Shown: positions 962-28,915 of the stretch, one piece after another
Numbering within the stretch: the first letter of the stretch is position 1
Layout of the letters: each line of letters begins with the position of its first letter
Origin: an uncultured delta proteobacterium
Lineage (GTDB): Bacteria > Myxococcota_A > Polyangia > Palsa-1104
Assembly: GCA_963785725.1 (NCBI GenBank)
Contig: CAWAWS010000007.1
Coordinates: forward strand, 416,001 to 480,000
DNA: 64,000 bases
Direction of reading: 5' to 3'
Notes under the pieces: generated by a model
What the model was told of the DNA's origin: nothing
What the model saw: only the letters and a program-made list of their open reading frames with translations
The model's database searches: none
Translations under genes and position numbers: made by a program

Positions 962-1184
962 GCTAATACTTTCATCACGATGGGTTGCTCGGAAACGCGC
1001 GATCCTATGAAGCAAGCGGCCCCAGTCAAGGGAAAAGCGTCCGCGCGCCCGGCGAGCACGCCATACTATGTTCGGCGTCATCGGCGGAGTCAAATCGCTC
1101 GCCGTCTTTTCTGGAATGAATTCGCCGGGTGTAGCGTTCGGGCAAAAATTTTGACAGGGACGAAATCGGGGCTGAAGCTGAGGC

Positions 1185-1520: not shown

Positions 1521-1648
1521 ACGCCCGTAGCGGCGGGGTATAGCAGCGTCCGGGCGGAACGCCAGCGCCGGGCGCGATCGTTTTGCCTGCTTTTCTCGGC
1601 GACGGTGTCTGCCGACCCCGCTGCCGCGCGTGCTAAAACTGGAGTCGC

Positions 1649-3021: not shown

Positions 3022-3058
3022 TGCGCGCCGAGGGTGGGCGCGGAGTGCGCGGCGGGCG

Positions 3059-3260
3059 GCGCGATTGCGGGACGTGCGGCGCGATTGCGGGACGTGCGGG
3101 CGCGATTGCGGGACGAGTGGGCGCGATTGCGGGACGTGCGGGCGCGGAATGCGCGGAGTGCGGGCGCGATTGCGGGACGTGCGGCGCGATTGCGGGACGT
3201 GCGGGCGCGGAATGCGCGGCGTGCGGCGCGGAGTGCGCCGCGAGTGGCGCGATTGCGTGC
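3059..3260. repeat. degenerate tandem repeat, 20-21-bp unit GCGCGATTGCGGGACGTGCG(G)
   Basis: About 9 imperfect copies directly after the HAD gene stop. Confidence 0.9.
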
Positions 3261-3420
3261 TCGGCGGGCGCGCATGCGCGGCGGTAGGCTCGCCGGGCCG
3301 AGCGGTCATTCGGTTTACGGCACGGCGAGGCCGGGCGGGCGCAGCGAGCCGGCCGCGCCCGGCCTCGCTCCGTCGGGCCGGCCATCGGCGGATCGCGCAC
3401 GACGATCGCGAGGCTTATCG

Positions 3421-3456
3421 CGGGCTCGGTCTCGCAGCGCCGACGTTCGCCCCCAA
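3421..3456 (+). repeat. dispersed repeat, copy 1 (inverted copy at 23655-23690)
   Basis: CGGGCTCGGTCTCGCAGCGCCGACGTTCGCCCCCAA is identical to the reverse complement of 23655-23690. Confidence 0.9.
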
Positions 3457-3518
3457 ACGCAACGCTAGCCGCGAGCACGACTTTTCGCGTCGCAGCGGCG
3501 CGTGGTACAAGCGCGGGC

Positions 3519-4346
3519 ATGTTGACTCCTGCCGTGGAAGCGTTGATCGCGCTGGCGATCGAAGAGGATCTCGGGCGCGGCGATGTGACGTCGGAGGCGA
3601 TCTTCGACGCGGCGGCGACGACTGCGGGCGTCATCATCGCCAAGGAGCCGCTGACGGTCGCCGGCGCGGCGGTCGCGGCGGCGGTGTTCGCGCGCGTCGA
3701 CGGCGGGACGCGCGTCGTGGTGCAAGCGGGCGACGGCAGCCGCGTGACCAAAGGTGACGGCGTCATTCGCGTCGAGGGCCGCACCCGGGCGTTGTTGGCG
3801 GCGGAGCGTACGGCGTTGAACTTCTTGCAGCGGCTGTCGGGCGTGGCCACGTTGACGCGGCAGTTCGTCGACGCCGTGGCCGGCACGCGGGCGCGCATTT
3901 GCGACACGCGCAAGACGGCGCCCGGCTGGCGCGTACTCGACAAGCTCGCCGTCGTCGCCGGCGGCGGCGTCAATCATCGCGCCGATCTGGCGAGCGGCGT
4001 GCTCATCAAGGACAACCACGTCATCGCCGCCGGCGGAGTGCGCGCGGCGGTCGAGCGGGCGCGGCAGCGGGCGCCGCATTCGTTGCGCGTCGAAGTCGAA
4101 GTGACGGAGCTGGCGCAGATCGAAGAAGCCTTGGCCGCCGGCGCCGAAGTGGTCTTGCTCGATAATATGGACGCGGCGAACGTGCGCGCGGCGGTGGGGC
4201 AGATCGCCGGCCGCGCGATCGTCGAAGTCTCGGGCGGCATCAATTTGCAGACGGTGCGCGCGTTCGCCGAGGCGGGGCCGGATCGGATCTCGGTCGGCGC
4301 GCTGACGCACTCCGCGCGCGCGGTCGACCTGTCGCTCGAGCTGTGA
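3519..4346 (+). CDS. nadC: nicotinate-nucleotide diphosphorylase (carboxylating)
   Basis: [62 protein letters not shown]. Confidence 0.98.
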
Positions 4347-5818
4347 CCGGCAAGCGCGGCAGCGGCGGTGGTCGCGCCGGCACTGCGGGTCTCGGTGCGC
4401 GTCACGCTGGCAACGGCCGCGGCGGATCCGGCAATCGCCGCGACAATGCAGCCGGTGGTGCTGACGGCAAACGCCACAACGACGCCGGCGCCGCGGACGA
4501 CGATCGCCGAGCAGCCGGCGATGCTGACGGCAAACGCGACGACGACGCCGGCGCCACGGACGACGATCGCCGAGCAGCCGGGGATGATGACGGCAAACGC
4601 CGTGACGACGCCGGCGCCGCGGACGACGATCGCCGAGCAGCCGGCGATGCTGACGGCAAACGCCACAACGACGCCGGCGCCACGGCCGACGACCGCCGAA
4701 CCGCCGGCGACGACGCCGGCGCCGCGGACGACGACCGCCGAGCCAACCCGTCGCCGGCAGCCCCGACTCCCGCCGACGCCACGGACGACGATCGCCGCCG
4801 CACAGATTCGCCGCCGGCCGGCGCGACTCCCGTCGACGCGCTCGTCGCGCCATCGTCTTCGTCCGACGAGCGCCTGCTGCAGCTGCTGCGGGGCGCCGAC
4901 TTCGTCTCCGGCGAACACATCGCCGACCTGCTCGGCGTCTCCCGCGCCGCTGTCGGCAAGCGCGTCACCGAGCTGCGCAAACGCGGCTTTGCCATCGCCG
5001 CTACGCCACGGCGCGGCTACCGGCTCGACGGCGAACCCGATGCCCTCGACGCCGCCGTCGTGCAGCCGCGCCTTGCCACCGACTGGCTCGGCCGCGCCTG
5101 GCGCCACCTGCCGACCACTGGTTCAACCAATGACGAAGCCGCCGCGTGGGCACGGGCCGGCGCGCCGGCCGGCGCCGTCGTCGTCGCCGACGCGCAGACG
5201 CGTGGTCGCGGTCGCCTCGGGCGTCGCTGGCATTCGCCGTCGGGCGCCAGCCTCTACTTCTCGGTCGTCCTGCGCCCGCCGCTGCCGCCACATCGCGTGC
5301 CGCCGTTGACGCTCGCGGCCGGTGTCGCCGTCGCCGAAGCCTTGACCGCGCTCGACATCACGCCGCAGCTGAAGTGGCCCAACGACGTCCTCCTCGACGG
5401 CAAGAAAGTCGCCGGCATCCTCACCGAGATGAGCTCCGATTCGATCGTGTCCATCACGTCGTCGTCGGCATCGGCGTCAACCTCAACACGCGCGACTTCC
5501 CCGACGAGTTGGTCGCGATCGCCACGTCGGCGGCGTTGGTGCGCGGCCTCCCCGTCGTGCGCGCCGACTTCGCCGCCGCGTTGTGCGGCCGCTTGGAACA
5601 TTGGTTTGACCGCTTCGTCGCCGAAGGGCCGGCCGTCGTCGCAGTCGCCTGGAAGCAGCACGCCCGCATTTTCGGTCGCCGCGTTCGCGTGACCGCCGGC
5701 CGCGACATCCTCGAAGGCATCGCCGAAGATCTCGGAAGACGACGGCGCCCTTCGTCTTCGCCTCGACGATGGCCGCTCCACGCGCGTCATCGCCGGCGAA
5801 GTCACCCCATTGGTTTGA
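4343..5818 (+). CDS. birA: biotin--[acetyl-CoA-carboxylase] ligase/repressor with repeat-derived N-terminal extension; two apparent frameshifts (~5440, ~5734)
   Basis: HTH segment ([21 protein letters not shown]), [42 protein letters not shown] continues in another frame and DDGALRL...IAGEV in a third, ending at TGA 5816-5818. Confidence 0.9.
4443..4800. repeat. 63-bp tandem repeat (~4.5 copies plus decayed copies) in the birA 5' region
   Basis: GACGCCGGCG unit starts at 4481, 4544, 4607 and 4670. Confidence 0.9.
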
Positions 5819-6143
5819 CCATTCCCCACAGCGCCGCTTCGGTCGACGGTCGTGAAGTGCCCACGGGCACGATTGTGGCGTGATTCGACGTACTGCCGCG
5901 TCTCCCGCGATTCGCGAACGCGATCGTCGCAATGGTTTAACCATTGCGACTAATGGTTTAACCATTGCCGGAAGCGAGGCGCCGACCGGCGACGTCGCGT
6001 GTTCCGCAGCGCGCAGATCGCGAGAGAGCAGCTCCGCCCGCGGGGGGCGTACTAGACTGGATCGTCGAGCGTTCGGCGAATCCGGGAATCCGCGGCCATT
6101 TGAGACACGAGGGACGCGTGTCTCGGCGATTTCTTCGCTGTCT

Positions 6144-6178
6144 GCGCGCTCGAATTGGTTTAACCAATTCGAGCGCGC
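6144..6178. repeat. perfect 17-bp inverted repeat centred on one TGGTTTAACCA site, between convergent birA and lolA
   Basis: GCGCGCTCGAATTGGTT-T-AACCAATTCGAGCGCGC. Confidence 0.85.
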
Positions 6179-6208
6179 GCTCGTTCGCGAGCGCAAACAA
6201 ACGGCCGC

Positions 6209-6844
6209 CTAATGAAAGGCGTTTTCCGGCAGCGTCACGTTCTTCGCCAGCTTGGTGAAGACGATCTCTTTCTCGTCGCCGTTCGGCTCGACGAGCGCGA
6301 TCGCCCGCAACAAATGCGTCTTGCCGTCGAGTCGCAGCTCGACGCGCGCGAACGCTCGCGCCACCGTGCTCGCCGGCTTCGGCGTCAGCAGCAGCGTCGG
6401 CGCAGCCGCCGTACCGCCGCTCGCGAGCTCGTAATCCGCACGCGCCTGCGCCAGCGAGCCCGACCCCAACCACACGAGCAGCTGGTCGAAGATGGCGCGC
6501 ATCGTCGCGTCCTTGGCCAGGTCGAAGACCTGCGGCGCCGCACCCGGCGACGACAGCGTGGCTCGATTCCCGTCGAGAATCAGCGTCGAAGGATCGGGCG
6601 TCGTGTACTCCCAGCGAATTTGCCGCGGCTGCCGAAAATAGAGCTTCCCGTGCGCGACCAGCTCTTGCTTGAACAGCTTGACCCGATTCCTCTGCGTGAA
6701 CTCGCCGCTCAAGGTCGTGACGGAAGCCTTCGCCGCGTCGACCTCCTTCAGCAACGCGTCCAACGGCGGCGCTTGCGCATGTCCCATCGCCGCGATGCCC
6801 AAGATCACCCACGCAGCGACGGCAGCGAGTAATGGTTTAACCAT
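6209..6844 (-). CDS. LolA-like outer-membrane lipoprotein carrier
   Basis: Signal peptide MVKPLLAAVAAWVILGIAAMGHAQA, then GEFTQ...GKLYFRQPRQIRWEYTTP. The frame stays open upstream to GTG 7276 through a repeat. Confidence 0.88.
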   Translation of the reverse strand: MVKPLLAAVAAWVILGIAAMGHAQAPPLDALLKEVDAAKASVTTLSGEFTQRNRVKLFKQELVAHGKLYFRQPRQIRWEYTTPDPSTLILDGNRATLSSPGAAPQVFDLAKDATMRAIFDQLLVWLGSGSLAQARADYELASGGTAAAPTLLLTPKPASTVARAFARVELRLDGKTHLLRAIALVEPNGDEKEIVFTKLAKNVTLPENAFH

Positions 6845-6899
6845 TCCCCCGCCCCGTCGCGCTCGCCCATACGCCGACAGCTTGCCAGCAGACGCAGCC

Positions 6900-7245
6900 G
6901 CCGCGTCCCTATTCACGCCGGCAAACGAAGTGGCTGCGTCGTCGCTCACGCCGGCAAACGCGCCGGCTGCGTCGTCGTTCAGGCTGGCAAACGAATTGGC
7001 TGCGTCCTTTTGGCCGGCAAACGAAGCGTCTGGGTCGTCGCTCAGGCTGGCAAACGAGGTGGCTGGGTCGTCGCTCAGGCTGGCAAACGAGGTGGCTGCG
7101 TCGCTGTTCAGGCTGGCAAACGAGGTGGCTGCATCGTCGTTCAGGCTGGCAAACGAGGCGGCTGCGTCGCTGTTCAGGCCGGCAAACGCGCTGACTGCGT
7201 CATCGTTCAGGCCGGCAAACGCGCTGACGGCGTCGTCGTTTACGG
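6900..7245. repeat. 33-bp tandem repeat (~10 copies) between ACP and lolA
   Basis: Unit approximately GGCAAACGAGGTGGCTGCGTCGTCGTTCAGGCT, read as LNDDAATSFAS in the lolA frame. Confidence 0.9.
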
Positions 7246-7272
7246 TCGCAACCGCGCCGGTCGCGCGGTCGC

Positions 7273-7533
7273 TCACGCCGGCGGCCGGTTGGCGCCGACA
7301 TACTCCGCCAGCGCGCTCACCGACGAGAACACCTTCTTGCCGACCGCTTCGTCGGGGATGGTCACGTGATACTTACGCTCGATCGCCACCGCCAGCTCGA
7401 GCGCGTCGATGCTGTCCAGCCCCAACCCCTCCTGAAACAGCGGCGCGTCGTCGACGATCTGCTCCGCCGTGACGTCCGAAAGGTTCAAGCTGCCGATGAT
7501 CAGTTCCTTGATGTCCCGCTTTAGATCGTTCAT
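7273..7533 (-). CDS. acyl carrier protein
   Basis: GLGLDSIDALEL phosphopantetheine motif; 86 aa, acidic. Confidence 0.95.
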   Translation of the reverse strand: MNDLKRDIKELIIGSLNLSDVTAEQIVDDAPLFQEGLGLDSIDALELAVAIERKYHVTIPDEAVGKKVFSSVSALAEYVGANRPPA

Positions 7534-7552
7534 TCGCCCTTTCAAGTTCGCC

Positions 7553-8263
7553 TTACGTCAGCCCGCCGTCAACTCCGAGCACCGTGCCCGTCAGATACGC
7601 GGCTCCGTCGGAGCACAGCCACGCCGCGGCCGCCGCGATTTCCTCGGCGCGACCCGGCCGGCCGAGCGGAATCGCGCGCAGTAGCTCGGCGCGCGCTTTC
7701 TCCGGCAGCGCCGCCGTCATCTCCGTTTCGACGAAGCCGGCGCACAAGCAATTCACCGTGATCTGAAAGCGCGCCACTTCTCGCGCCAGCGATCGCGTGA
7801 GCCCGATCAGCCCCGCTTTTGCCGCGCCATAATTGGTTTGACCAATACGCCCCAGCATCGCCGTCGGCGAGACGATATGCACGACGCGTCCCCAACGCCG
7901 CCCGATCATCGCTTTGATCGCCTGCTTGCCGACGAGAAATCCCGCCTTCAGATGCACCGCCAAGACGTCGTCGAAGTCTTGCTCCGGCATCATCAGCATC
8001 AGCTTGTCGCGCGTAAACCCGGCCGCGTGCACGACGACGTCGAAGCCGCGCTCGCCCTCGACGTCGAAGAGCGCCTGCACTGCCGCCGCCGAGCTAACGT
8101 CACAGCGCGCCACGGCAATGGTTGAACCATTGTCGGCGACCGCCTGCGCAGCCGCGTCATCGTGCGCGTACAGCGCCAGCACGTCGTGGCCGGCAGCAGC
8201 GAGCGCGCGCGCGATCGCTAGGCCGATGCCCTTGGTTCCCCCGGTCACTAGCGCGCGTCGCAT
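7553..8263 (-). CDS. fabG: 3-oxoacyl-ACP reductase (SDR)
   Basis: TGGTKGIG, AGFTRDKL, GQTNYGAAKAG, VDGG. Confidence 0.92.
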   Translation of the reverse strand: MRRALVTGGTKGIGLAIARALAAAGHDVLALYAHDDAAAQAVADNGSTIAVARCDVSSAAAVQALFDVEGERGFDVVVHAAGFTRDKLMLMMPEQDFDDVLAVHLKAGFLVGKQAIKAMIGRRWGRVVHIVSPTAMLGRIGQTNYGAAKAGLIGLTRSLAREVARFQITVNCLCAGFVETEMTAALPEKARAELLRAIPLGRPGRAEEIAAAAAWLCSDGAAYLTGTVLGVDGGLT

Positions 8264-8323
8264 GGGTCCGCATGTATATACGTACAGCGTGGCTGCTTCA
8301 ATGGTTCAACCATTTCCGCTATC

Positions 8324-9142
8324 GTGCGCTCGATGATCCGCGGCTGGCCTTGGGCCCGACTCGTCTTCGGCCTCGCTGTCGCCGGCAGCGTCGGCGCGAT
8401 CGTCCGCACGCTCAGCGGCGGCAACCTCCCGTGGTGGTGCTTGGCGACGATCGCGATCGCGCTCATATCCAGCATCGGCGCCGGCGTTTTCATGCTCGGC
8501 AGCGGCCTCTTCGCGCGCCCCATTCTCGCCGTCGATCCCGCGCGCGCCGGCGATCGATTGGCCATCACCTTCGACGACGGTCCCGACGAAGAGCACACGC
8601 GCGCCGTCGCTGCGCTGCTCGAGGCGCGCGGCCATCGCGGCACGTTCTTCGTCATCGGCCGCCGCGCAGCCGCGGCTCCGGCGCTCTTGGCGGAGCTCGT
8701 GCGGCGCGGCCATGGGCTCGGCAACCACTCGTTCACGCACGCCTACACGACGCCGTTCCAGCATCCGAAGCGGCTCGCCGCCGATCTGGCGCGCGCGCAG
8801 GACCTGTTTGCGCAGGCGGGCGCGCGCGTCCGCTTTTTTCGTCCGCCCGTCGGGCTGCTGTCGCCGCGCGTGGTGGAAGCGGCGCGGCGAATTGGTTTAA
8901 CCATTGTCGGCTGGAGCGCGACCGCGCGCGATGGTCGCGCGTCGACGACGGCGGCCGCGGCGGCGGCGCGGCTCATCGCGGCGGCGCGGCCAGGCGCGAT
9001 CTTGGTGCTGCACGACTCTGCCGAGCGCGGCGCGCGCGTCCCCGTCGCCGCGGCGGCGCTGGTGCCGCTGCTCGACGCGCTGGCGGCGCGCGGCTTGCGC
9101 AGCGTGACGCTCGACGAGCTCATCGGAAACGAGGAGAACTGA
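8324..9142 (+). CDS. polysaccharide deacetylase family protein with N-terminal TM segments
   Basis: ITFDDGP, GNHSFTH, FFRPPVG, ILVLHD. Confidence 0.93.
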   Translation: MRSMIRGWPWARLVFGLAVAGSVGAIVRTLSGGNLPWWCLATIAIALISSIGAGVFMLGSGLFARPILAVDPARAGDRLAITFDDGPDEEHTRAVAALLEARGHRGTFFVIGRRAAAAPALLAELVRRGHGLGNHSFTHAYTTPFQHPKRLAADLARAQDLFAQAGARVRFFRPPVGLLSPRVVEAARRIGLTIVGWSATARDGRASTTAAAAAARLIAAARPGAILVLHDSAERGARVPVAAAALVPLLDALAARGLRSVTLDELIGNEEN

Positions 9143-9903
9143 TGTCCGTACGCGTGGAGAAAAATGGCGCCGTCACGACGGTGGTCTTGAGCCGCGCCGA
9201 CGTGCGCAATGCCGTCGATCGCGATCACGCAGAGGCGCTGGCCGACGCCTTTCGCCGCTTCGAGGCCGACGACGGCGCGCACGTGGCGGTGCTCTTCGGC
9301 GAAGGCGGAAACTTCTGCGCCGGCGCCGACCTGAAGGCGATGTCGGCGGGGAATCCCAACCGTGTCGAGCCGAGCGGCGACGCGCCGATGGGCCCGACGC
9401 GCTATTTGCTGCGCAAGCCGGTCATCGCCGCGGTCGCGGGCTATGCCGTCGCCGGCGGGTTGGAGCTGGCCTGTTGGTGTGACCTGCGCGTGGTCGAAGA
9501 GGACGCGGTATTCGGCGTCTTTTGCCGTCGCTGGGGTGTGCCGCTCATCGACGGCGGCACCGTGCGCTTGCCGCGGCTCATCGGCCTGTCCCGCGCGCTC
9601 GACCTGATCCTGTCCGGCCGCCCCGTCGGCGCCGCCGAAGCATTGGCGATAGGTCTGGCCAATCGGGTCGTTCCGCGCGGCGACGCGCGCGCTGCCGCCG
9701 AGGCGCTCGCCGCCGAGCTCGCGAGCCTGCCGCAGCTGTGCCTACGCAACGACCGGTTGTCGACGTACGAGCAAGCGGCGATGACGATTCCCGAGGCGCT
9801 CGACAATGAGTTCGCCCACGGCTGGACATCGCTGGCGCACGCGGCCGAAGGCATCGATCGCTTCGTCGGCGGCGCCGGTAGACACGGCGGCAAACCCCAA
9901 TAG
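9142..9903 (+). CDS. enoyl-CoA hydratase/crotonase
   Basis: ATG overlaps the upstream TGA. FCAGADL, KPVIAAVAGYAVAGGLELA, WGVPLIDGGTVRLPRLIG. Confidence 0.95.
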   Translation: MSVRVEKNGAVTTVVLSRADVRNAVDRDHAEALADAFRRFEADDGAHVAVLFGEGGNFCAGADLKAMSAGNPNRVEPSGDAPMGPTRYLLRKPVIAAVAGYAVAGGLELACWCDLRVVEEDAVFGVFCRRWGVPLIDGGTVRLPRLIGLSRALDLILSGRPVGAAEALAIGLANRVVPRGDARAAAEALAAELASLPQLCLRNDRLSTYEQAAMTIPEALDNEFAHGWTSLAHAAEGIDRFVGGAGRHGGKPQ

Positions 9904-10459
9904 CAAATGGTTAAACCAATCCCCTAAATGGTTTAACCATTTTCGAGTGCCGCTCTTCGATTGTGGCATTCACGGAAACGGCACCGCCACCAAATCCCGA
10001 GGAATGCTTAACCATCGGAGAGATGGTTTGACTGATCGCTGTGCCGCGAAATGCGGGCTCGACGCAAAGTCGGGGGGGGGGGAGACGACGGCTGCCGCGG
10101 CGCGAGTGGCAGCGCCGGTTGTGCGCGCGTGTCGCGAGTGGCGGAAGAGGGTCGCGCCAGTCGTCAACACCTCCTCGAGCGCGTTGGCGACATTATTGGC
10201 GTTCTGATCGCGCAGCAAACGCCGAGTCGGGTATCAATGGTTAAACCAATTGTAGGAATGGTTTCACCATCGACCGTTGCCGAGAGCGGGGCGTGCTCCG
10301 AACATCGGCGGGCGCATGGCGGACACGGCGACCGTGCCGTCGGTGGGCTTCCCGCGAGCAGCTGCCGCGTGCCGCGAAGTCTGCCGCCGGCCGGACGTCG
10401 GCCGCGCGCCGAAACATCGGCCGGCGTGCGTGCGATCGTCCGCAACGCTGTAACCGTTG

Positions 10460-10564
10460 GGGCGTGCTGCGAACGTCGGAGGGCGTGCTGCGAACGTCGG
10501 AGGGCGTGCTGCGAACGTCGGAGGGCGTGCTGCGAACGTCGGAGGGCGTGCTGCGAACGTCGGA
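10460..10564. repeat. five perfect copies of the 21-mer GGGCGTGCTGCGAACGTCGGA
   Basis: Units start at 10460, 10481, 10502, 10523 and 10544 in a convergent intergenic region. Confidence 0.95.
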
Positions 10565-10656
10565 TACTGCGAAACTTCGGCCGTCTGCCTTGAGTGATTC
10601 GCGGGGACGGCCGGCGAAATAGGCCTCGATCGGCCTGGGTTTGCGGCGGGTCGTGC

Positions 10657-11646
10657 TCAGCCGGCGAGTAGCGCGGCCGCCGTCGCTGCGCCGCCGTCGT
10701 CGCCGGCACATGCGAGCGCCAGGGTGCCTTGGGCGGCGTGACTGAAGAATTCAGCGACGGCGATGAGCGGCGCCGCGCCCAATGTATTCCCGTCGCTGAC
10801 GGCGCTTCGTGCAGCGCTGGCGGCGGATGAGCCGGCATCCCATTCGCGCCCTTGCACGCGGGCGCGACGAGCGGCGGCGCCATCAGCGGGCGCAGCCAGG
10901 ACGCGCCCGAACGCGCCCGCCGGCAGATCGGCCGCCGCCAGCGTTCGCGCGATCGCGTCAGCGACGGCCGCCGCGCGCGCGCCGGCGTGAAACGCGGCCG
11001 CCGCCGCCAGCAGCCGCCCGCGTGGCGTCGCGCCCCGTCGCGCAGCATCGCCGGCTCGCTCGAGCAGCAGCGCGGCGCTGGCGTCGACCAGCGCCGCGTC
11101 GGCGTAAAGGGACGGCCCGTCCCCCGCCAAAATTCGCGTCAACAACGGCGTCGCCACCTCGGCCGCGCACACCAACACGCGGTCGGCGCGCCCACGCTCG
11201 ATCAGCGCCACTCCTTCGGCGAACGCGTCGAGCCCACTGGTCAAACCATTGCACCACGCCGTCGCCGGACCGCGTACGCCGTAGTGAATCGAGACCTCAC
11301 CGACGGGAGACGAGGGCAACGTGTACGCGAACAGGCGTGGGCTGGCGCCGAGCTGGCCGTCGCGAACCAAGCCGCGATAGTAGTCTTCGTTGGTCGCGTG
11401 GCAGCCGAAGGCGCTACCGAATACGATGGCCGTGCGCTCGCCGTCCCATTCGGGCGCAGTCGGCGCCAGCGCGCCGTCGAGCAGCGCGCCATCGCAGGCC
11501 ACGAGCGTCAGCGCGCACAGGCGATCCATGCGCGCCAGCCGTGCCTCTTTGCCGGCCCAGCGCGCCGGCGCGAGCGCGGCGCCCGGCATGACCGCAACCG
11601 CATACGCGCCCGTCACCACCACTTCGGTTCGCCGTTCTCGCGCCAT
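10657..11646 (-). CDS. beta-ketoacyl synthase-like protein lacking the catalytic Cys (chain-length-factor-like)
   Basis: RMDRL, GSAFG, SPRLFAYTLPS, GNTLGA. The usual TACAS motif aligns to NGLTS. Confidence 0.82.
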   Translation of the reverse strand: MARERRTEVVVTGAYAVAVMPGAALAPARWAGKEARLARMDRLCALTLVACDGALLDGALAPTAPEWDGERTAIVFGSAFGCHATNEDYYRGLVRDGQLGASPRLFAYTLPSSPVGEVSIHYGVRGPATAWCNGLTSGLDAFAEGVALIERGRADRVLVCAAEVATPLLTRILAGDGPSLYADAALVDASAALLLERAGDAARRGATPRGRLLAAAAAFHAGARAAAVADAIARTLAAADLPAGAFGRVLAAPADGAAARRARVQGREWDAGSSAASAARSAVSDGNTLGAAPLIAVAEFFSHAAQGTLALACAGDDGGAATAAALLAG

Positions 11647-11670
11647 CGCCAAGGCTGTAGAGTCTACGCA

Positions 11671-13725
11671 ATGCGGCAATCGGCGTCGATTTCGAAATGG
11701 TTAAACCAATCCTTGGCGCTGTTGCTGCTCGTCGCCGCCGGCTGCAGCAGCAAGCCAGTCGGCCCGCAGGCGGTCATGCAAGCGACGACGCCGCTCGACC
11801 TGCGCCTCTTGCCCTGGCCGTCGGATGCGCTGCTCGGCGACAACGGTAAGCTGCAGGTGGCGACGCCGTTCCCCTTCGATTCGCTCGTCGAGGACAATCT
11901 GACGCAGCTGGCGGCGTCGTTGTCGGAAGCGGACGGGTTTTCGTCGACGCGTTCGATCTTCTTCCCCGTCGACGCGGATGTCGTGCTCGACGCGGGCGCC
12001 GTCGCGACCGTGGCCGACCTCGACGACGCGACGCAGACGTGGAGCTTTCCGCTCTTTTATCGCGCGCCCTACAAGCAGCTCGTGGCCATGTCGCCGCTCG
12101 GGACGTCGCTGAAAGAGCACCACAACTACGGCTGCTGGATCACGAGCGGCGTTCACGATGCCGCCGGTCACGCGCTGCGGCCGTCGCCGACGATGCACGA
12201 TGCCATCGCTGGAAAAGGGGCGTTTGGCGGCAAGGCGTCCTATCAGAAGTTGGCGCAGCGTCTCGCTTCGTTAAAGGTCAAACCATTGGCGGCGACGGCG
12301 TTCACGACGCAGACGCTGACCGGCTGGGTGCCCAAGGTGCTCGACGATTTGACGGCCATGCCGCCGGTGGCGCACTTCACGCGGCTCTTCGCCTCGTCGG
12401 ACGACCTGCAGGATCTGTTCGGCGGCCCGGTGACGACGACGCTGCCGGGCCGTCCGGCGTCGGGCGGCGTGCTGCACGATCAGATCGGCTTCGTCCTCGA
12501 AGGCACCTACGACTCGCCGCACTATCTCGCGCCGACGCCGGATGTGCTCGGGCTGTTCGACGCCGCGCAATCGGTGCAGTCGGTCAACTCCATCCCGTTC
12601 ATATTGGTCCTACCAATTCGCGGCGACTATGCGAACACGCCGGTGGCGATTTTTCAGCACGGCATCGACAGCGACCGTTCGGCGGTGCTGTCGGTCGCCA
12701 ACGACTACGCGGCGCGCGGCTACGCCGTCCTCGGCATCGACGAGCTGTGGCATGGCTCGCGACTACCGGGCAACGTCGACAAGGTGTTCAACCTCTCCGG
12801 CGCGCCCGGCAGCGACGGCATCGGCGACCCGAGCAGCGGCGGCGCGGTGTCGTGGTTCTTCGACTTCAACGGCAACTCCAGCGCCGGCATCCTGTCGCTC
12901 GACGTGCGCTGCATTCGCGACAACTTCCGCCAAGCGACCGTCGATCTCATGCAGGAAGTGCGACTCGCGCGCAGCGGTGATTTCTCGTCGCTGGCGGCGG
13001 CCGACCCGCGCTTGGCGACGCTGACCATCGACGGGGCCGATCTCGTCTATACGTCGGAGTCGTTCGGCTCGATCTTGGGCGCGATCGTCGTCGCCGTCGA
13101 TCCGATGCTCGACTCGGCCGTGCTCGACGTCGGAGGCAGCGGCATGCTGGCCGATCTCGTGCCCAATTCGCCGGAGTTCGGCCCGCGACTGGCGCCGCTC
13201 GTCTCCAACGCGTTCGATATCGACGCCGATCTCGACGATCCCGACACGCTGCCCGTGCGCGCGCAAATGTCGTTCAACCTCTTGCAGCAGGTGCTCGATC
13301 CGGCCGACGGGCTCGCGCTTTCGTCGGGGTCGACCGCGAGCAAGAGCCTATTTTTCCTGCACGACTTCGCCGACGAGACGGTGCCGAATCAGGCGGAGGA
13401 GGCCTTGGCGCGCGCGTTCGGCGCCACGCAGGTCGTGCTCGCGCAGCAGTCTCATGCGCTCACGTACGTGACGTTGCCGACGACAGCGGCGCCGTATGCC
13501 GCTTCGCCGCTGCACGCCGTCGTCGAGTTGGCCGGCGCCGGCCACGGCATGTTCACGACGCAGGAAGGCACGCACAACTATCAGTTTCCGTTTCCGCCGT
13601 TCACGATGCTGCCGGCGGTGCAGCCGTTCGACGAGCCGACCGCGTTGGCGCACGCGCTGGCGCTCGACTTCATCGACAGCGTTCGCGCCGGCGCGCCCAG
13701 CATCACCGATCCGACCGCAAATTAA
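11671..13725 (+). CDS. large lipoprotein with alpha/beta-hydrolase (lipase-like) domain
   Basis: Lipobox LLVAAGC, then FQHGI, GIDELWHGSR, RDNFRQ and SESFG (nucleophile-elbow-like). Confidence 0.78.
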   Translation: MRQSASISKWLNQSLALLLLVAAGCSSKPVGPQAVMQATTPLDLRLLPWPSDALLGDNGKLQVATPFPFDSLVEDNLTQLAASLSEADGFSSTRSIFFPVDADVVLDAGAVATVADLDDATQTWSFPLFYRAPYKQLVAMSPLGTSLKEHHNYGCWITSGVHDAAGHALRPSPTMHDAIAGKGAFGGKASYQKLAQRLASLKVKPLAATAFTTQTLTGWVPKVLDDLTAMPPVAHFTRLFASSDDLQDLFGGPVTTTLPGRPASGGVLHDQIGFVLEGTYDSPHYLAPTPDVLGLFDAAQSVQSVNSIPFILVLPIRGDYANTPVAIFQHGIDSDRSAVLSVANDYAARGYAVLGIDELWHGSRLPGNVDKVFNLSGAPGSDGIGDPSSGGAVSWFFDFNGNSSAGILSLDVRCIRDNFRQATVDLMQEVRLARSGDFSSLAAADPRLATLTIDGADLVYTSESFGSILGAIVVAVDPMLDSAVLDVGGSGMLADLVPNSPEFGPRLAPLVSNAFDIDADLDDPDTLPVRAQMSFNLLQQVLDPADGLALSSGSTASKSLFFLHDFADETVPNQAEEALARAFGATQVVLAQQSHALTYVTLPTTAAPYAASPLHAVVELAGAGHGMFTTQEGTHNYQFPFPPFTMLPAVQPFDEPTALAHALALDFIDSVRAGAPSITDPTAN

Positions 13726-13762
13726 CGAGGCGCATAATGGTTAAACCAATCCAAGAAATGGT

Positions 13763-15004
13763 TTAACCATTGGCGCGAGTGAGGACGACGGCGGCGTTCG
13801 TGCCGCCGAAGCCGGACGACGTCGACAGCGCGACGCGCACGTCGGCGGCGCGCGGCGCGCCGTGCACGACGTCGAGCGCGATCTGCGGATCGATCTCACG
13901 CAGCCCAGCGGTGGGCGCGATCTGGCCGGCTTCGAGCGTGCGCACGCAGACGATCGCCTCCAACGCCGCCGCCGCGCCGAGCGTGTGGCCGAGCGCGCCC
14001 TTGACGGAATTGACCGGGATGGCCCCGGCGCGTTCGCCGAAGACGTGACGTAACGCGTGGCCTTCCATCAGATCGTTGAAGACGGTGGCGGTGCCGTGCG
14101 CGCTGACGAAGCCGACGGCGCCCGCGTCCTGGCCGGCGTCGACGAGCGCGGCCTGCATGGCGCGGGCGGCGCCGCGGCCTTCGCGGTCGGGCCCGGTCAT
14201 GTGCACGGCGTCGGCGGCGACGCCGCTGCCGTCGACGAAGGCGCGGATGCGGGCGCCGCGATCCCGCGCGTGCGGCTCGGCTTCGATGACGAGAAAGGCC
14301 GCCGCTTCGCCGAGGTTGAGACCGCGGCGGCTGCCATCGAACGGGCGACAGAGCTCGGCGTCGAGCGCTTTCAGGCAGGCGAAGCCTTGAATGACGAAGT
14401 CGTGCAGCGCGTCGGCGCCGCCGGCGAGCACGACGTCACAGCGGCCGCTGCGGATGAGCGCCAGGGCGGCGTCGATCGCGACGTTACCCGACGCGCAGGC
14501 CACCGAGGGCACGACGAGCGGGCCGCGCGCGTCGACGGCCGCGGCGACGGCTTGCGCCGGACCGGCGTAGCCCCAGCCTTGCGGCGCGCGCAGTGGTGCG
14601 GTTGATGGTTCAACCATTGCGTCGATTGGTTCAACCACTGCGCCGATTGGTTTAACCATTGACGCGCCCGCTTCGACGTCGGCGCGAACGAGCGGCAGCC
14701 ACGACGCGATGCCGCCCAGCGTCGTGCCGCAGGCGACGGCGAGCCGCGGGCCGCGCGGGACGTTGCCGGCGTCGGCGAGCGCCTCTTCCGCGGCCCAGCG
14801 CGCCAACGTCGCGGCGCGCGACGGCGCCGTCAGCGGTAAAGCTTCGACGAGCGCCACGGGGCCGACGCGCAGGCCGACGGCGCTCAGCTGCGGCTGCTCG
14901 CGCATGGCGCGCTCGCCGTCGAGCAGTGCCGTCCACAGCCGCTCGACGCCGCGGCCGAAGCCCGTTACCGCGCCCATTCCCGTGACGACCGCGCGAATGC
15001 TCAC
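13763..15004 (-). CDS. beta-ketoacyl-ACP synthase (FabF-like)
   Basis: VVTGMG, ACASG, CRPFD, GEAAA, HGTAT, GHTLGAA, SGFGG. Confidence 0.95.
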   Translation of the reverse strand: MSIRAVVTGMGAVTGFGRGVERLWTALLDGERAMREQPQLSAVGLRVGPVALVEALPLTAPSRAATLARWAAEEALADAGNVPRGPRLAVACGTTLGGIASWLPLVRADVEAGASMVKPIGAVVEPIDAMVEPSTAPLRAPQGWGYAGPAQAVAAAVDARGPLVVPSVACASGNVAIDAALALIRSGRCDVVLAGGADALHDFVIQGFACLKALDAELCRPFDGSRRGLNLGEAAAFLVIEAEPHARDRGARIRAFVDGSGVAADAVHMTGPDREGRGAARAMQAALVDAGQDAGAVGFVSAHGTATVFNDLMEGHALRHVFGERAGAIPVNSVKGALGHTLGAAAALEAIVCVRTLEAGQIAPTAGLREIDPQIALDVVHGAPRAADVRVALSTSSGFGGTNAAVVLTRANG

Positions 15005-15099
15005 GGACGCTCGCTGGCCGCCGAATGTTCCGGCTCGAGCGCGCTCACGGCCGGCTGCGGGTAGGGCGCCGTCACCGCGAGCCGTTTACCGCGCGCGCC

Positions 15100-15385
15100 G
15101 TCGGCGGCCCGCCATCGCAGACTGAGGGCCGCGCAGCCGCCGTCGCTGGCGCTGCCGGGCACTGCTGCGGCGGATTCCAGAAGTCGAGCTCTGCCGATAG
15201 TCCACCGCAAGCTCAGGGCCGCGCAGCCGCCGTCGCTGGCGTCGCCCGGCAGTGCCGGGGCTGCCGCTGCGGATTCCGGAAGTCGAGCTCCGCCGACGGC
15301 CAAACGCAGCAGGCTCACGGCGCCGTCGCCGTCGCTGGCGTCGCCGGCACTGCCCGCACCGGCTGCGGCGGATTCCAGAAGTCGA
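15100..15385. repeat. three diverged ~100-bp copies of the acyltransferase 3' end
   Basis: GCGGATTCC(A/G)GAAGTCGA recurs at about 15170, 15269 and 15368, with CCGTCGCTGGCG in each copy. Confidence 0.8.
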
Positions 15386-16271
15386 AGAAGTTGAACCATT
15401 GCTCCGGATACTGCCGCACGTACCGTTCGTACACGGCCACGATACGCGCCGTCGCCTCGCGCACGTCGGCGTCGCGATCGCTCGTATGCGCCACTTCGAT
15501 CGGCGGCTCGACGTGAAACGTACAGTGCGTGCGCGTCTGGTCGGCGATGATGAACGTCGGCAAGAGCGGCGAGCCCGTCGCGCGCGCCAACGTCGCCGGC
15601 CCCAGCGGAAACGGCGCGTCGTGCCCGCAAAACGGCAGCCGCACATGCGGCCCGCCGGTGAAGCGATCCATCTGCATCCCGACGAGCTCGCCGCGACGCA
15701 GCACGCGCGCCAGATCGAGCGTCGCGAACGGCGAGCGCGTCGTGTACACGATGCTGAATTTCTCGCGAAACTGCCGCTCCCACTCGCCGGTGCCTTGGTT
15801 CGGCTCCTCGGCCATCGCCATCGTCAGCGGCGGATAACTCTTACGCTTCATCAAGATCGGCGCGATCTGCCAAAAGCCGAGATGCCCCGTGACGACGACG
15901 GCGCCGCGCCCCTCCTGCTGCAGCTTCGTGATGTGCTCTTGCCCGAGCGTCACCGCGTCGACGGGAACCGCTTGCCCGGCGTGCAGCGCGTACATGTTGG
16001 CGATCGACTGCGCGTAGTTCACGAAGAGGCGAAAGCTGCGCGCCTTCGTCTCCAGCGGATTGGTAGGACCAATGACGCGCTCGAGATTGGCCTCGATTAC
16101 GCGCCGCGCGCGCGGCACCAACACATAGAAAATACCGGCCCAGAACGGCATCGTCGCCCGCTGCAGCGGATGCGAAATGTTGCGAATACCGGCCATCATC
16201 ACCCGGCGGTAGAACGGACCTTCGAAGCGATGGCGAAACGCTTGAGCTGCTGACTGTTTCCGACTGCGCAT
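15315..16271 (-). CDS. lysophospholipid/LpxL-type acyltransferase
   Basis: TGHLGFWQ, MQMDR, PFPLGPA, YPEQWFNF. Confidence 0.9.
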   Translation of the reverse strand: MRSRKQSAAQAFRHRFEGPFYRRVMMAGIRNISHPLQRATMPFWAGIFYVLVPRARRVIEANLERVIGPTNPLETKARSFRLFVNYAQSIANMYALHAGQAVPVDAVTLGQEHITKLQQEGRGAVVVTGHLGFWQIAPILMKRKSYPPLTMAMAEEPNQGTGEWERQFREKFSIVYTTRSPFATLDLARVLRRGELVGMQMDRFTGGPHVRLPFCGHDAPFPLGPATLARATGSPLLPTFIIADQTRTHCTFHVEPPIEVAHTSDRDADVREATARIVAVYERYVRQYPEQWFNFFDFWNPPQPVRAVPATPATATAP

Positions 16272-16289
16272 ACGGACGCGCAGTATCCC

Positions 16290-19200
16290 CTAAAGTCGTG
16301 CGGGCGTCACGTCGCGCAAGAGCAGCACGTGATCGAGCTCGATCGCCGATCCTTCGCGCTTGAGCTCGATGCGAATTGGTTTAACCATTTCTGAAATTGG
16401 TTTAACCATTCTCGCTTCCTGGTAACGCGGGCCCAACGTCAGCGGCGGCAGCGCCACGCCGTCGACGATGACCGTCAGCTGCGCGTTGTCGCCGAGGGCC
16501 CGCGCGCGCACGAGGATGACGTCGGCGCCCGCCGGCGCGACCGCGCGCAGCGACGCCGTGGGCGCGTCGAGCGTACAGCTGCTCGCGCCCAGCCACTGCT
16601 CGAGCGCGGCTTCGACGGCCGGGACGCGCCCGTGGCGACAGACGAGATCGATGCCACCGACGGTCGACGGCGGCGGCGCGGCTGGCAGCGGCGCGTCGGT
16701 GACGCGCGAGGCCTGCATGATCGGCCGCGGCGACGGGCGCGCATGCACGGGCGGACGAAAGCTGTTCGGCGCCCACGTCGTCGTCGCGACCGCGCCGAGG
16801 CGAACGAGCGCTTCGCTGGCGCGCGGCAGCGGCGGCTCGGCGGCGGCGGCCGCCGCCAGCGCGTCGACGGCACGCGCGTCGCCGGCGAGACCGAGCGCCC
16901 AGGCCAGATCGACGCGCGCGTCGTCGTGATCTTCGACGGCAAAACGATCGAGCAGAGCCCCGGCGGCGCGACGATCGCCGACTCGTCCGGCGATGCGACC
17001 GACGGAGACGTAAGCGGCGCCGCGTACGCGCGGGTCGGCGGCGACGCTCCACAAGGCGGCGACATCGCCGGCGCCGCCGACGAAGCCGAGGTAGTGCGCG
17101 GCTTCGCGCTGCAGCGCCGCGGCGGCGCTGTCGCCTTCGGCGAACGGGCGACGACAGATCGCGGCCAAGCGCGGCGCCGCGGCGTCGTCGCGCAGACGGC
17201 CGAGCATGAGGGCGGCGCGATCGCCGTAGGCATCGTCGTCGACGAGCGCGCGCAACGCGGCGCGGGCGCGCGCGTCGCTGAGCTGGCCGAGCGCGAGCGC
17301 GGCTTCGGCGCGCACGGCGGGATCGCGGTCGGCGAGCGCGGCTTGTAACGCGGCCGCGGCGGCGAAGGCTTCGCGCTCGCCGAGCTCGCGGGCGGCTTGG
17401 GCGCGCGTGGCCGCCGGCTGCGTCGGGTCGCCGAGGCGCGTCGCCAGCAGCGACGGCGGCGATTGGTTCAACCATTGGCCGAGCGCCGCGCGCAGCTCGC
17501 CGCCGACGTCGGCGTGCACATCGTAGGCATTCCGCATTTCGCGCGGATCGGACTGCAGATCGTAGAGCTCGTCGACGTCGCGGCGCAGATCGTGAATCAG
17601 CTTCCACGGCCAACGCAGCAGCATGCGACGCGTGTGCACGGCCGCGACGACGTCGCGCGGCGCCGGGTCGAGCGGCGGCAGCGGGCGGCCGTCGCCGGCG
17701 CTGGGTGGCAAGCCGGCGAGCGCGGCCAGCGTCGGGGCGACGTCGACGAGCGACACCGGCGTGGCGATCGTCACAGCCGGCAAGAGCGCGCGGCCGACGA
17801 CGGTGACGACGAGCGGCACGCGCAGCTGCTCGTCGTAGACCGAAGAGCCGTGATACGCGCCGCCATGCTCGCCGAACTCCTCGCCGTGATCGCCGGTGAT
17901 GACGAGCAAGGTCGGGCGCGCCAAATTGGTTAAACCATTAATGAGGCGAGCGAGCGCGCCATCGACGGCGGCGACTTCGGCGTCATAACGAGCCAGTGGC
18001 GGCGCATCGGCGGGCAGGCCATGCAGCTCGTAAGGCTCGTGCGGATCGAAGTAGTGGACCCACAAGAGCGAGCGCGGCTCACCATCGGCGACGAGCTGCT
18101 GCACGCGCGTCAACACGGCGTCGGTCAGCTCCTCCGCGGGCAGCGTGCGCGTGTCGACCCATTCGAAGCCGAAATGATCGTTGGCGTACGGTAGAAGTGG
18201 CCCGCCGCCGTCGAAGAAGAGGCCGGCGGGGAAGAATGCGGCCGTCAGCCAGCCTTGGGCGCGCGCGATCTGCGCCAGCGTCGGTGGGCGCGCGTCGAGG
18301 TGCGACGGGTGGTGGGCGGTGAGCAGCGCCGTGATCGACGCGGCTGTCGAGGGTGCCGTGGCGTAGGCGCGGCTGAAGGCGAGGCTGTGCGCGGTGGCTG
18401 CGGCGACGAGCGGCATGTGCTCCGGCCGCAGGCGATCGGCGCGCAACGCGTCGACGGTAACGATGACGACGTGCGCGTCGCCGAGCGGCGCGGCGGCCTG
18501 CGCCCAGATGTCGGCGAGATCGGCGTCGGCGCGGTTCAGGGGCGCAAGATTGGTTAAACCATTCGCCGCGGCGGCGGTTGCGCCGGTCGTCACGCCCGGC
18601 GCCGACGGCGCGCCGTTCTTGGCGGCCGCAGCCGTCGTCGCCGCCGGGCGAAGAGCCGTCGCAGGCTGACTCAGCGAGCGCGCGACGAATGGTTTAACCA
18701 TTGTCACGGCGTCGAGGACGAGCGCGGTAGCCGGCGCTTGCGCGTTGGCCACGAAGCGCGTGTTGGCGCTGACGTCGACGAGAGTGCGACCGGCGAGCAA
18801 GAGCAGCACGCCGGCGAAAGACGCGACGGCGGACGATCGCCAGCGACGCCAGCTGCGCCAGTCGGCGGGCAGGCGCGGCTTGGCGGCGCCGAGCGCGCAC
18901 GCGAGCGCGACGAAACCGATGGCGAGCAGCGTCGCGCGCAGCGACGGGTAGAGGCGGCGGGGCAAGAGCGCTTCGAAGGCGAGCGTCGCCGCGCCGGCGG
19001 CGGCGAGCAGGACGCGGCCGAGTGGCGCGCGGCCGACGTGGAGCCGCGCGATCGACGGCAGCAGCCACAGCGCGGCGGAGATGGTGGCGGCGAGCAGCGC
19101 CGGCGCCGCGCGGCCGAGTCGCGCTTGCGCCAGATGGGTGGACGACAGCGCGATGCCGAGTGGAATGCCGGCGACGACGGCAGCGGCGGCGCGCGCGATC

Positions 19201-19661
19201 CGATCGGCTGCGAGCGCACGCGCACGCGCAAGTGCCGACGGCGCGCCGAGCGTCGTCGGCGATGACGGATTGCGAGCGGCATCCGCGACGTCGCCAACAG
19301 CGCGCGCAACATCGTGGTCGGAAGACGCGCCGTCGCGATCGGAAAGCGCGACGTTGCGAGCGGAAGACGCGCCGTCGCGATCGGAAAGCGCGACGTCGCG
19401 AGCGGAAGACCCGACGTCGCGAACGTTGCGAGCGGAAGACGCGCCGTCGTGGTCGGATGTCGCGACCTCGCGCCTGGCACCGGCCGTGAGCGCGCGCAGC
19501 CATGGCGTGAGGAGCAGCGCCGTGCCGCAGGCCAGCGCGAACGCGCCCGACCACAACGCCGCGCGCTCGCCGACACTGGCCCAAGCGCGCCGCAGCATGA
19601 GCACGTCGACCGTCGCCACCATCGCCGCGGCCCACAGCGCCGCCCGTCGGGTCGCATGCAT
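16290..19661 (-). CDS. membrane-anchored sulfatase/alkaline-phosphatase-superfamily protein with HEAT-like repeats
   Basis: N-terminal TM helices, then TVDALRAD, APSTAAS, WVHYFDPHEPY, GDHGEEFGEHG, LRVPL and DPAVRAEAALALG-type repeats. Start at 19661 is inferred. Confidence 0.85.
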   Translation of the reverse strand: MHATRRAALWAAAMVATVDVLMLRRAWASVGERAALWSGAFALACGTALLLTPWLRALTAGARREVATSDHDGASSARNVRDVGSSARDVALSDRDGASSARNVALSDRDGASSDHDVARAVGDVADAARNPSSPTTLGAPSALARARALAADRIARAAAAVVAGIPLGIALSSTHLAQARLGRAAPALLAATISAALWLLPSIARLHVGRAPLGRVLLAAAGAATLAFEALLPRRLYPSLRATLLAIGFVALACALGAAKPRLPADWRSWRRWRSSAVASFAGVLLLLAGRTLVDVSANTRFVANAQAPATALVLDAVTMVKPFVARSLSQPATALRPAATTAAAAKNGAPSAPGVTTGATAAAANGLTNLAPLNRADADLADIWAQAAAPLGDAHVVIVTVDALRADRLRPEHMPLVAAATAHSLAFSRAYATAPSTAASITALLTAHHPSHLDARPPTLAQIARAQGWLTAAFFPAGLFFDGGGPLLPYANDHFGFEWVDTRTLPAEELTDAVLTRVQQLVADGEPRSLLWVHYFDPHEPYELHGLPADAPPLARYDAEVAAVDGALARLINGLTNLARPTLLVITGDHGEEFGEHGGAYHGSSVYDEQLRVPLVVTVVGRALLPAVTIATPVSLVDVAPTLAALAGLPPSAGDGRPLPPLDPAPRDVVAAVHTRRMLLRWPWKLIHDLRRDVDELYDLQSDPREMRNAYDVHADVGGELRAALGQWLNQSPPSLLATRLGDPTQPAATRAQAARELGEREAFAAAAALQAALADRDPAVRAEAALALGQLSDARARAALRALVDDDAYGDRAALMLGRLRDDAAAPRLAAICRRPFAEGDSAAAALQREAAHYLGFVGGAGDVAALWSVAADPRVRGAAYVSVGRIAGRVGDRRAAGALLDRFAVEDHDDARVDLAWALGLAGDARAVDALAAAAAAEPPLPRASEALVRLGAVATTTWAPNSFRPPVHARPSPRPIMQASRVTDAPLPAAPPPSTVGGIDLVCRHGRVPAVEAALEQWLGASSCTLDAPTASLRAVAPAGADVILVRARALGDNAQLTVIVDGVALPPLTLGPRYQEARMVKPISEMVKPIRIELKREGSAIELDHVLLLRDVTPARL

Positions 19662-20173
19662 GAGCTTCTTGTATCGCCGATGCAACGGCGTATGGTCAAA
19701 CCAATGGTGATGACGCCGCGCGTTGCATTCGTCGCGCCGATCGTTGCTGCGCCTGCCGCGGTCATTCGCGCGCGGAACGCGTTGTTCGCGTCGAGTGAAG
19801 GCGAGGAGGCTATGCGTGCTCCGTCGCGGCGAGCGCTCGTCTTCGCGCCGAGCGCGCGCCTTCCATTTGTAGCCGTCGCGCCGAGCGAAAGCGGAGGCCA
19901 GCCATGCGCGCGACCCGTGCTGAGCGAAGGATGTCGCGAGTGCGCGATGTGCCGAGCGCGCGATGTCGCGGGCGCGCGACGTGCCGAGCGCGGTCGTGCC
20001 GAGCGCTGGCCGTCGCCACGCGCGCCGTCGTGCCGCGCGCCGACCGTCGCCATGCCTCCACCGCCGTCGCCATGCCGCCGCCGCCGCCGCCGCCGCCGTC
20101 GCTGACGTACCCTCCGCCGCGCCCATCTCGCCGCCGCCGCCGCATTTGCCGAAAGCAGTGCTACAACGTCGGC

Positions 20174-27915: not shown

Positions 27916-28911
<996 letters not shown>

Positions 28912-28915
28912 AAAC

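Follow-up and report, generated by a model that had tools for sequence, protein, structure and literature searches.

Four dense patches of FadR-type operator boxes in a Polyangia genome, probably coated as local chromosome domains

Introduction

Operators of the FadR subfamily of GntR regulators (Escherichia coli FadR, PdhR and LldR; Mycobacterium tuberculosis Rv0494) are TKGT-N3-ACMA palindromes with A/T flanks, and autoregulation is part of the pattern. The accessible text of a survey of this subfamily counts 2396 sites for 634 regulators, about four each, located at operons (PMC4494728). Here we analyze a 64-kb stretch of a Polyangia genome, positions 416001-480000 of contig C7 in the studied assembly (G000), hereafter the window. 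It carries 30 exact copies of a palindrome of this type, TGGT-N3-ACCA, and they form one of four patches in the genome. Unlike the sites of the surveyed FadR-type regulators, the roughly 160 boxes of G000 stand in four solid patches and are mostly intragenic or behind stop codons. Our reading, which we hold as probable from sequence comparison, is that the four patches consist of FadR-type boxes likely coated by P0001, a GntR protein encoded inside the largest patch, as local chromosome domains rather than a centromere or ordinary gene switches.

Other described arrangements share some properties of these patches. Auxiliary operators and repressor loops, as in lac, gal and lambda, involve two to six operators per locus, some of them intragenic, with helical phasing; here, in contrast, each patch holds 27-67 boxes over many unrelated transcription units. 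Chromosome landmark sites are a further comparison, matS and ram among them. The accessible part of a report on SlmA-SBS and RefZ-RBM (bioRxiv 10.1101/459685) presents TetR regulators whose sites serve as such landmarks. The likeness lies in a regulator-family protein with sites that mark chromosome regions rather than promoters, but the SlmA and RefZ sites in that source either extend across large arcs or have a fixed position with respect to oriC, whereas the patches described here are 11-34 kb long with about 2 boxes per kb, in places that vary within one family.

The DNA uptake sequences of Pasteurellaceae and Neisseria and the cyanobacterial HIP1 motif are likewise short motifs built up inside coding sequences regardless of gene function, and the accessible portions of two papers describe them as genome-wide (PMC2817400, PMC5861425). 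Here, however, 156 of 157 strong boxes (defined below) are confined to 84 kb, or 0.95% of the 8.9-Mb genome, pairs have a fixed geometry, and 58% of the covered codons differ from site-free orthologs. ParABS systems, including the parS cluster of Myxococcus xanthus, also have dense palindromes, but the sequence and the reader differ here, several patches lie far from the origin, and a canonical ParABS system exists separately. We found no description of such patches in the literature, with limited coverage, so this is weak evidence of novelty. The operator is of a known kind from a textbook family; it is the arrangement that we did not find described.

Distribution of the boxes

We define the core as TGGTNNNACCA (TGGT-N3-ACCA) and the full box as 15 bp, AWTGGTTWAACCAWT. 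A position weight matrix (PWM) was derived from the patch cores, and a strong box scores at least 19 bits. G001-G012 are related genomes, and L numbers are public contigs or loci. In the window, 30 exact cores lie at 5119-19703 and the rest of the 64 kb has none; in 100 dinucleotide shuffles the mean was 0.14 cores and the maximum 1. An initial annotation of this DNA had reported the same cluster, with about 0.1 copies expected by chance, and its count is borne out. The near-misses that it placed at 5602 and 12275 are also real, at 13.8 and 17.1 bits in the PWM. It overlooked that 7 of the 29 gaps between neighboring boxes are exactly 21 bp. The boxes are not an assembly artefact, because parts of window positions 4300-20000 are covered by public contigs of close relatives, taken from four soil studies, and a contig of 92.6% identity keeps 4/4 boxes of the neighboring patch.

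The whole of G000 contains 206 cores, 165 of them in four sharply bounded patches:

Patch A, C7:356.5-390.7 kb, 67 cores
Patch B, C7, this window, 30 cores
Patch C, C33:40-64 kb, 41 cores
Patch D, C39:304-316 kb, 27 cores

Patch A includes aryl-CoA genes, and also genes for a kinase, an RluA-type synthase, a transglycosylase, tatA and a LolE-like permease. The boxes of patch B extend over birA, lolA, acp and fabG as well as genes for a deacetylase, a hydratase, ketosynthases, an acyltransferase and a sulfatase. Patch C covers thyA and folA together with S1-domain and M1 peptidase genes, and patch D covers phosphatase/mutase, permease, YggX, radical SAM and ATP-grasp genes. The sole strong box outside the patches, at C20:273119 (28.7 bits), stands 44 bp upstream of a gene which, from its start, we take to resemble aconitase A; this box may be a true single target or a patch seed.

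The likely reader

Four GntR genes were found in G000. One of them, P0001 (C7:367773-368570), lies inside patch A, 48 kb before the window, and encodes a protein with GntR (PF00392) and FCD (PF07729) domains. Its closest solved relatives are Rv0494, PdhR and E. coli FadR, and it scores under every NCBIfam equivalog cut-off shown. The start codon of P0001 is overlapped by a box, which reads MVKP, and a second box lies 21 bp upstream; the first is kept in 5/5 aligned relatives and the second in 4/4. The boxes are TKGT-N3-ACMA palindromes with A/T-rich flanks, and the protein joins a GntR winged helix to an all-helical C-terminal domain and has a box at its own promoter. The resemblance to FadR-subfamily systems, as far as the accessible text of the survey describes them, extends to double sites at fixed spacing and to residues of the helix-turn-helix (HTH) (PMC4494728), and further to the GntR plus FCD build of the protein. 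According to the same text, Arg28 of the HTH favors G/C in the TKGT box and Asn39 favors A/T at the center (PMC4494728). P0001 has Arg at position 28 and Asn at position 39, and a FadR-like paralog on C19 has Ala at 39.

Orthologs of P0001 (at least 50% identity) occur in 7 of 30 relatives, and six of these seven have 5-31 boxes; 22 of the 23 relatives lacking an ortholog have 0-3 boxes. Five boxes or more are present in only 6 of 401 genomes of the class, all from the family of G000 (the tally includes the unpublished G326, on which no claim rests). On contig L149, a 41%-identical ortholog has the same gene neighbors, and its promoter pair is the only set of boxes in 12 kb. In G009 the usual neighbors stand side by side with no regulator, and no box was found in that 17.6 kb or in the genome. 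The ortholog tree is poorly resolved, with 3 of 14 branches starred, and gain and loss are polarised only through the comparison of L149 with G009. Taken from these sequence data, P0001 is very probably the reader of the box.

The predicted P0001 homodimer scored 0.62, against 0.02 for the best control, with at least 45% of contacts shared between runs and a predicted local distance difference test (pLDDT) value of at least 80. This mark is reached by 20/30 solved pairs and 1/23 single chains, and the score may stem from likeness to solved FadR dimers. A four-copy model gave one confident two-copy interface only. The initial annotation had also raised the idea of a FadR-like regulator coating a lipid locus. 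The FadR type is supported, with a candidate gene 48 kb before the window, but a lipid locus is too narrow a description: the patches cover thyA, folA, tatA, the RluA-type synthase, yggX and peptidases, and do not follow genes across genomes.

Pair geometry and a proposed coat

Exactly 21 bp separate the boxes in 37 of 161 neighbor gaps of G000, with 31 different spacers. The short pairs of G001, G002, G003, G007 and G010 are all 21 bp. In G012, 18 of 21 pairs are 20 bp, the same distance as in its own autoregulatory pair. Since the distance is fixed and the spacer is free, the geometry points to protein-protein contact and not to copying. Gaps of 25-300 bp in G000 have a phase of 10.9-11.0 bp (jitter p 0.003; 0.004 on unique values).

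We propose that P0001 dimers would bind each box, for example AATGGTTTAACCATT, and that two dimers would bind cooperatively on one helix face at the 21-bp pairs. The ancestor would have had the autoregulatory pair only, and boxes would have gathered round founder operators in one Polyangia clade. Box 8302, in the fabG/deacetylase gap of patch B, is a candidate founder operator; the same gap is boxed in G001, G002 and G004. Because a new box near bound ones would be cooperatively occupied and kept, patches would nucleate, creep and sometimes arise anew. The least secure steps concern the function of the coat, which we infer. With one bound unit per 700-950 bp, it would loop or compact the patch; it would also block read-through at convergent gene ends and damp transcription; and it would be released by a ligand, which by analogy with the family is probably an acyl- or aryl-CoA. 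The altered mutation signature of patch DNA, given below, would be a side effect of the coat. The nucleoid-organizing array that the initial annotation had mentioned is close to what we favor here. A bolder formulation, which we find doubtful although conceivable, is that a metabolic repressor has turned into sequence-programmed, self-propagating bacterial chromatin. Through cooperative binding, new boxes would spread next to old ones, and coated domains of 11-34 kb would, like heterochromatin, start at arbitrary loci and move out over adjacent genes. Conserved codons would be rewritten, and the domains would come under a mutation or recombination regime of their own, with repeat expansion and A+T drift.

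Several observations weigh against a coat of P0001. The genomes compared are kin, not independent samples. G011 has an ortholog of P0001 (cut at a contig end) yet no strong box, and no ortholog was found in G007 (51% complete), which has 5 boxes. Box-poor and box-rich lineages share the same recognition helix, and the spread is therefore not explained by a change in the protein. The 21 gaps of relatives show no helical phase, and boxes are evenly spaced in patch B only (p 0.023, one of four patches). The sparser congeners have boxes in 4/7, 3/7 and 5/7 divergent gaps versus 1/7, 1/7 and 2/7 convergent gaps, like ordinary operators, and several acyl-CoA genes lie within patches A and B. The rise in A+T described below is absent from G012 (1.9-2.3% vs 2.2%) and slight in G004. 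Finally, amino-acid change and frameshifts are not clearly raised in patch genes, likely essential ones included, and for this reason strong silencing is unlikely.

Placement of the boxes in genes and genomes

The boxes could instead belong to an ordinary FadR-type regulon, in which many auxiliary operators tune acyl-CoA-related promoters and the extra boxes only raise the local concentration of repressor. Sites of such a regulon stand at the promoters of functionally linked operons, and those of G000 do not. Its 156 strong boxes comprise 46 in convergent gaps, 43 within genes, 39 in tandem gaps (21 near 3′ ends and 18 near 5′ ends), 12 on stops, 9 in divergent gaps and 7 on starts. A box is present in 14/14 convergent gaps of the patches versus 6/13 divergent gaps. 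For the window, where the limits of birA and fabG were corrected by hand, the 30 boxes divide into 16 within genes, 8 across three convergent gaps, 3 in divergent gaps, 2 on likely stop codons and 1 on the lolA start codon; box 19693 is counted with the divergent gaps uncertainly because the sulfatase start is unsure. The initial annotation was right to remark that the sites ignore gene logic.

Sites of a regulon would also follow orthologous genes from genome to genome. Patches A, B and C are syntenic in relatives and patch A is common to them, but patch D and the extra patches of G012 are not syntenic. Orthologs of the patch D genes have no box of at least 16 bits in 5/5 relatives, and from this sequence comparison patch D appears to have arisen within a single lineage. 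The number of boxes in patch B is 1 in the stretches seen of G001, G003 and G004, and 15 in G002. In G012, patch B also takes in uvrD and the operon of MoxR and vWA genes, whose orthologs in the window lie at 20-39 kb, and these G012 genes have box-free orthologs (C7:436-455 kb in G000) in G000, G002, G003 and G010. Further loci that are box-free in G000 carry boxes in G012 and in two metagenome contigs.

A promoter pair as the ancestral state, a fabG/deacetylase gap boxed in four genomes, the divergent-gap preference of sparse relatives and the presence of CoA ligase, acyl-CoA dehydrogenase, hydratases, BirA, acyl carrier protein, FabG and ketosynthases in patches A and B are all in line with a regulon, but the 27 boxes on the patch D genes, box-free in five relatives, are not, nor is the covering of uvrD and the MoxR operon in G012 or the excess of convergent and intragenic boxes over divergent ones. 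We consider an ordinary regulon unlikely.

Mutation signature of patch DNA

Tandem repeats make up 7-15% of the patches versus a median of 1.5% in 705 windows, and some of the repeats contain boxes. Orthologous genes stand on average about 220 bp further apart than in five relatives, and controls are close to zero or negative (p 0.008 to 0.00009 in the four testable relatives; no excess against G012). At four-fold sites the median A+T is 8.6% in 50 patch genes versus 4.1% in 52 controls (p 2e-8). Silent-site A+T reaches 10% in patch D versus 2-4% at the same codons of box-free orthologs, and 12% in patch B of G002. Changes from G/C to A/T are up 2-4 fold, and G-C swaps are little changed. The rise in A+T is even throughout a patch and drops off within about 1 kb beyond its edges, and on this flat profile a local A+T footprint beside boxes was rejected. 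Pseudogene decay was also rejected, since patches A, B and D have no excess of frameshifts and patch C has a few.

This signature is what one might expect from a molecular drive, in which bound cooperative boxes shield DNA from homologous recombination or repair, so that box alleles spread without benefit and patches decay like non-recombining regions. The higher silent-site A+T, the bias toward G/C-to-A/T changes, the repeats, the longer gaps between genes and the arbitrary gene content all agree with it. Box-rich G012 has no rise in A+T, however, amino-acid rates are not clearly raised, and lower expression of coated genes would yield the same signature. A molecular drive of this kind seems improbable to us as the explanation of the patches.

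How boxes arise

For intragenic boxes of G000 we made 142 box-by-relative comparisons, which are not independent: the box is kept in 41, intermediate in 3 and absent in 98. Where it is absent, 8.4 of the 15 bases differ on average. Amino-acid mismatch at box codons is 316/542 (58%) versus a background of 27%, and divergence returns to background more than 7 bp from the box center. In a permease gene of patch D, four relatives are nearly alike over a stretch from which G000 differs in 12 of 18 bases, with no indel. Among patch 15-mers, those with three mismatches are enriched 78-fold and those with four 5-fold, and 15-mers with five or more mismatches are not enriched. Congeners are 8.7 mismatches from consensus versus the 7.3-7.8 expected if capture began at five or six, a suggestive comparison, confounded by box positions that are somewhat more variable anyway. 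Intergenic boxes also multiply via tandem duplication, and one pair came from a 31-bp tandem duplication. These data appear to fit both stepwise selection and one-step writing of boxes.

One-step writing could be templated: a fork stalled by bound protein would switch template, a box would be made in a single event, and it would then simply be tolerated. The all-or-none gain, the lack of excess at five or more mismatches, the distance of the congeners and the duplicated pair would all be natural outcomes of such events, but changes end at the box edge, nearly all pair spacers differ, and the excess of 15-mers with three or four mismatches and the confounding variability of box positions also stand in the way. 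Moreover, the likeness of box flanks is 10.9/20 to boxes of the same patch and 10.9/20 to boxes of other patches. We regard templated writing as quite improbable. Co-conversion of flanks from neighboring boxes was rejected as well; flanks are not shared.

The clade is a natural series, from no regulator through one autoregulatory pair and sparse patches to saturated patches, with the recognition helix unchanged. Boxes were gained inside conserved genes at the cost of amino-acid changes, and unrelated and housekeeping genes are covered. Two questions become addressable with one small protein and defined DNA: how regulators become chromosome organizers, and whether a protein coat alters local mutation and recombination in bacteria.

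Other readers and the centromere question

A reader other than P0001, such as the FadR-like paralog at C19:148 kb, is very improbable: the paralog is of the same subfamily, but most box-free relatives have a paralog-like match (27-38% identity), and the paralog itself has no such box upstream and carries Ala at HTH position 39. The paralog gene (C19:148331-149032) has similar matches across the order, and TGGT-CCG/CGA-ACCA sites are scattered. Isolated intergenic boxes with a G/C-rich center may be its ordinary regulon.

The lead of the initial annotation was a non-canonical, parS-like centromere, and it had named as checks a single cluster near oriC, no canonical parS and a ParB with switched specificity residues. 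The genome scan found four patches instead. G000 has three canonical parS-type sites at C19:123.7 kb, at a distance of 9 kb from dnaA, and all relatives searched (5/5) have parS as well. The single ParB found in G000, encoded beside ParA, reads GKDR...MGH and keeps the equivalents of R173 and G201; in the accessible part of PMC7383237, Arg and Gly at these positions are parS-specific. On a 4-Mb contig of G002, the positions are 0.65-0.66 Mb for dnaA and parS and 1.62-1.72 Mb for patches A and C, about 1 Mb away, and patch positions vary between genomes. Dense palindromes that ignore gene logic do recall a centromere or an anchor of the origin, with ParB or something similar as reader, but the checks named above refute this explanation and we give it almost no credence.

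Both GC skew and codon-position skew were too weak in G000 to place the replication origin or terminus, and a pattern search gave no convincing dif-like site. The parAB genes are at C6:332436-334143, on another contig than dnaA and parS and at least 70 kb from them. A further perfect parS-type site is at C16:16102.

Features of the window

Positions are those of the window, and a strand is given where one was assigned.

5117..19705, patch B: 30 boxes AWTGGTTWAACCAWT, with further weak boxes at 5600, 12273 and 15386; density about 2 per kb, with sharp edges and no core in 1-5118 or 19704-64000
4343..5818, plus strand, birA (HTH_11 and BPL domains) with a repeat-rich 5′ extension; frameshift near 5439, probably another near 5735
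5117..5131, box within birA, encoding TGSTN; the same codons are site-free in G002
5809..6168, box on the likely birA stop codon (5811); within the birA/lolA convergent gap, 21-bp pair 5933/5954 and box 6156
6831..6845, minus strand, box over the likely lolA start codon, reading M-V-K-P
6912..7282, 33-bp tandem repeat in 10 copies between lolA and acp; a typical repeat expansion of a patch
7832..8905, boxes in fabG (7834, 8119), the divergent fabG/deacetylase gap (8302) and the deacetylase gene (8893)
9906..10271, 21-bp pairs 9908/9929 and 10238/10259 in the convergent gap between the genes for an enoyl-CoA hydratase and a ketosynthase-like protein
10460-10564, 15141-15385 and 19318-19472, further tandem repeats of patch B
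11236..12617, boxes in the ketosynthase-like gene (11238), a divergent gap (11698) and a phospholipase-like gene (12275, weak, and 12605)
13736..14660, 21-bp pair 13738/13759, located in a convergent gap and reaching over a stop codon; a ketoacyl synthase gene holds the 21-bp triple 14606/14627/14648
16059..19705, boxes in a lipid-A-type acyltransferase gene (16061) and a sulfatase-HEAT gene (pair 16377/16398, 17464, 17927, 18551, 18690); 19693 near the 5′ end of the sulfatase-HEAT gene
20174..22456, plus strand, uvrD, the first gene past the right edge of patch B; box-covered in G012
27907-36535, operon of MoxR AAA, DUF58, vWA, BatD and TPR-SH3 genes; box-free here, box-covered in G012

The frameshifts in birA are likely long-read assembly errors; the extra base that restores the frame near 5439 is present in a public contig. 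A scan of window positions 3000-21000 gave 0 sigma-70 promoters (0.7 expected) and 10 terminators (12.9 expected). At gathering score, Rfam had no match in the window and four loci (144 kb; L006 left out).

Further loci

No box pair was found in viral contigs. In L046:13013-17119 (G012:C462), two box pairs lie on orthologs of G000 C15:216-222 kb, where G000 has no boxes; judged from its translations, this G000 region resembles a Flp/Tad pilus locus. The high-GC metagenome contigs L115 and L136 have 20-bp pairs or triples at loci that are box-free in G000, as further lineage-specific patches. Seven contigs of 55-58% GC (L123, L127, L135, L140, L141, L157 and L164) have one 21-bp pair each and no patch, and by their sequence these single pairs would be ordinary double operators in other bacteria. 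The low-GC metagenome contigs L148, L162 and L113 have arrays, at about 20 bp, of a similar A/T-rich palindrome, which in L148 and L162 stand at both ends of a short element. These low-GC arrays come with no protein match to G000 and were set aside as probably unrelated.

Partial and full boxes form two tandem arrays with a period of 21 bp, at C33:63368-63653 (14 copies) and C7:386046-386288 (11 copies); they are possible tracks for head-to-tail binding. Patch A also encodes, at C7:373276-374157 (L002:17276-18157), a conserved 293-aa protein that has no Pfam or NCBIfam match and that is found beside the distant P0001 ortholog of L149 as well.

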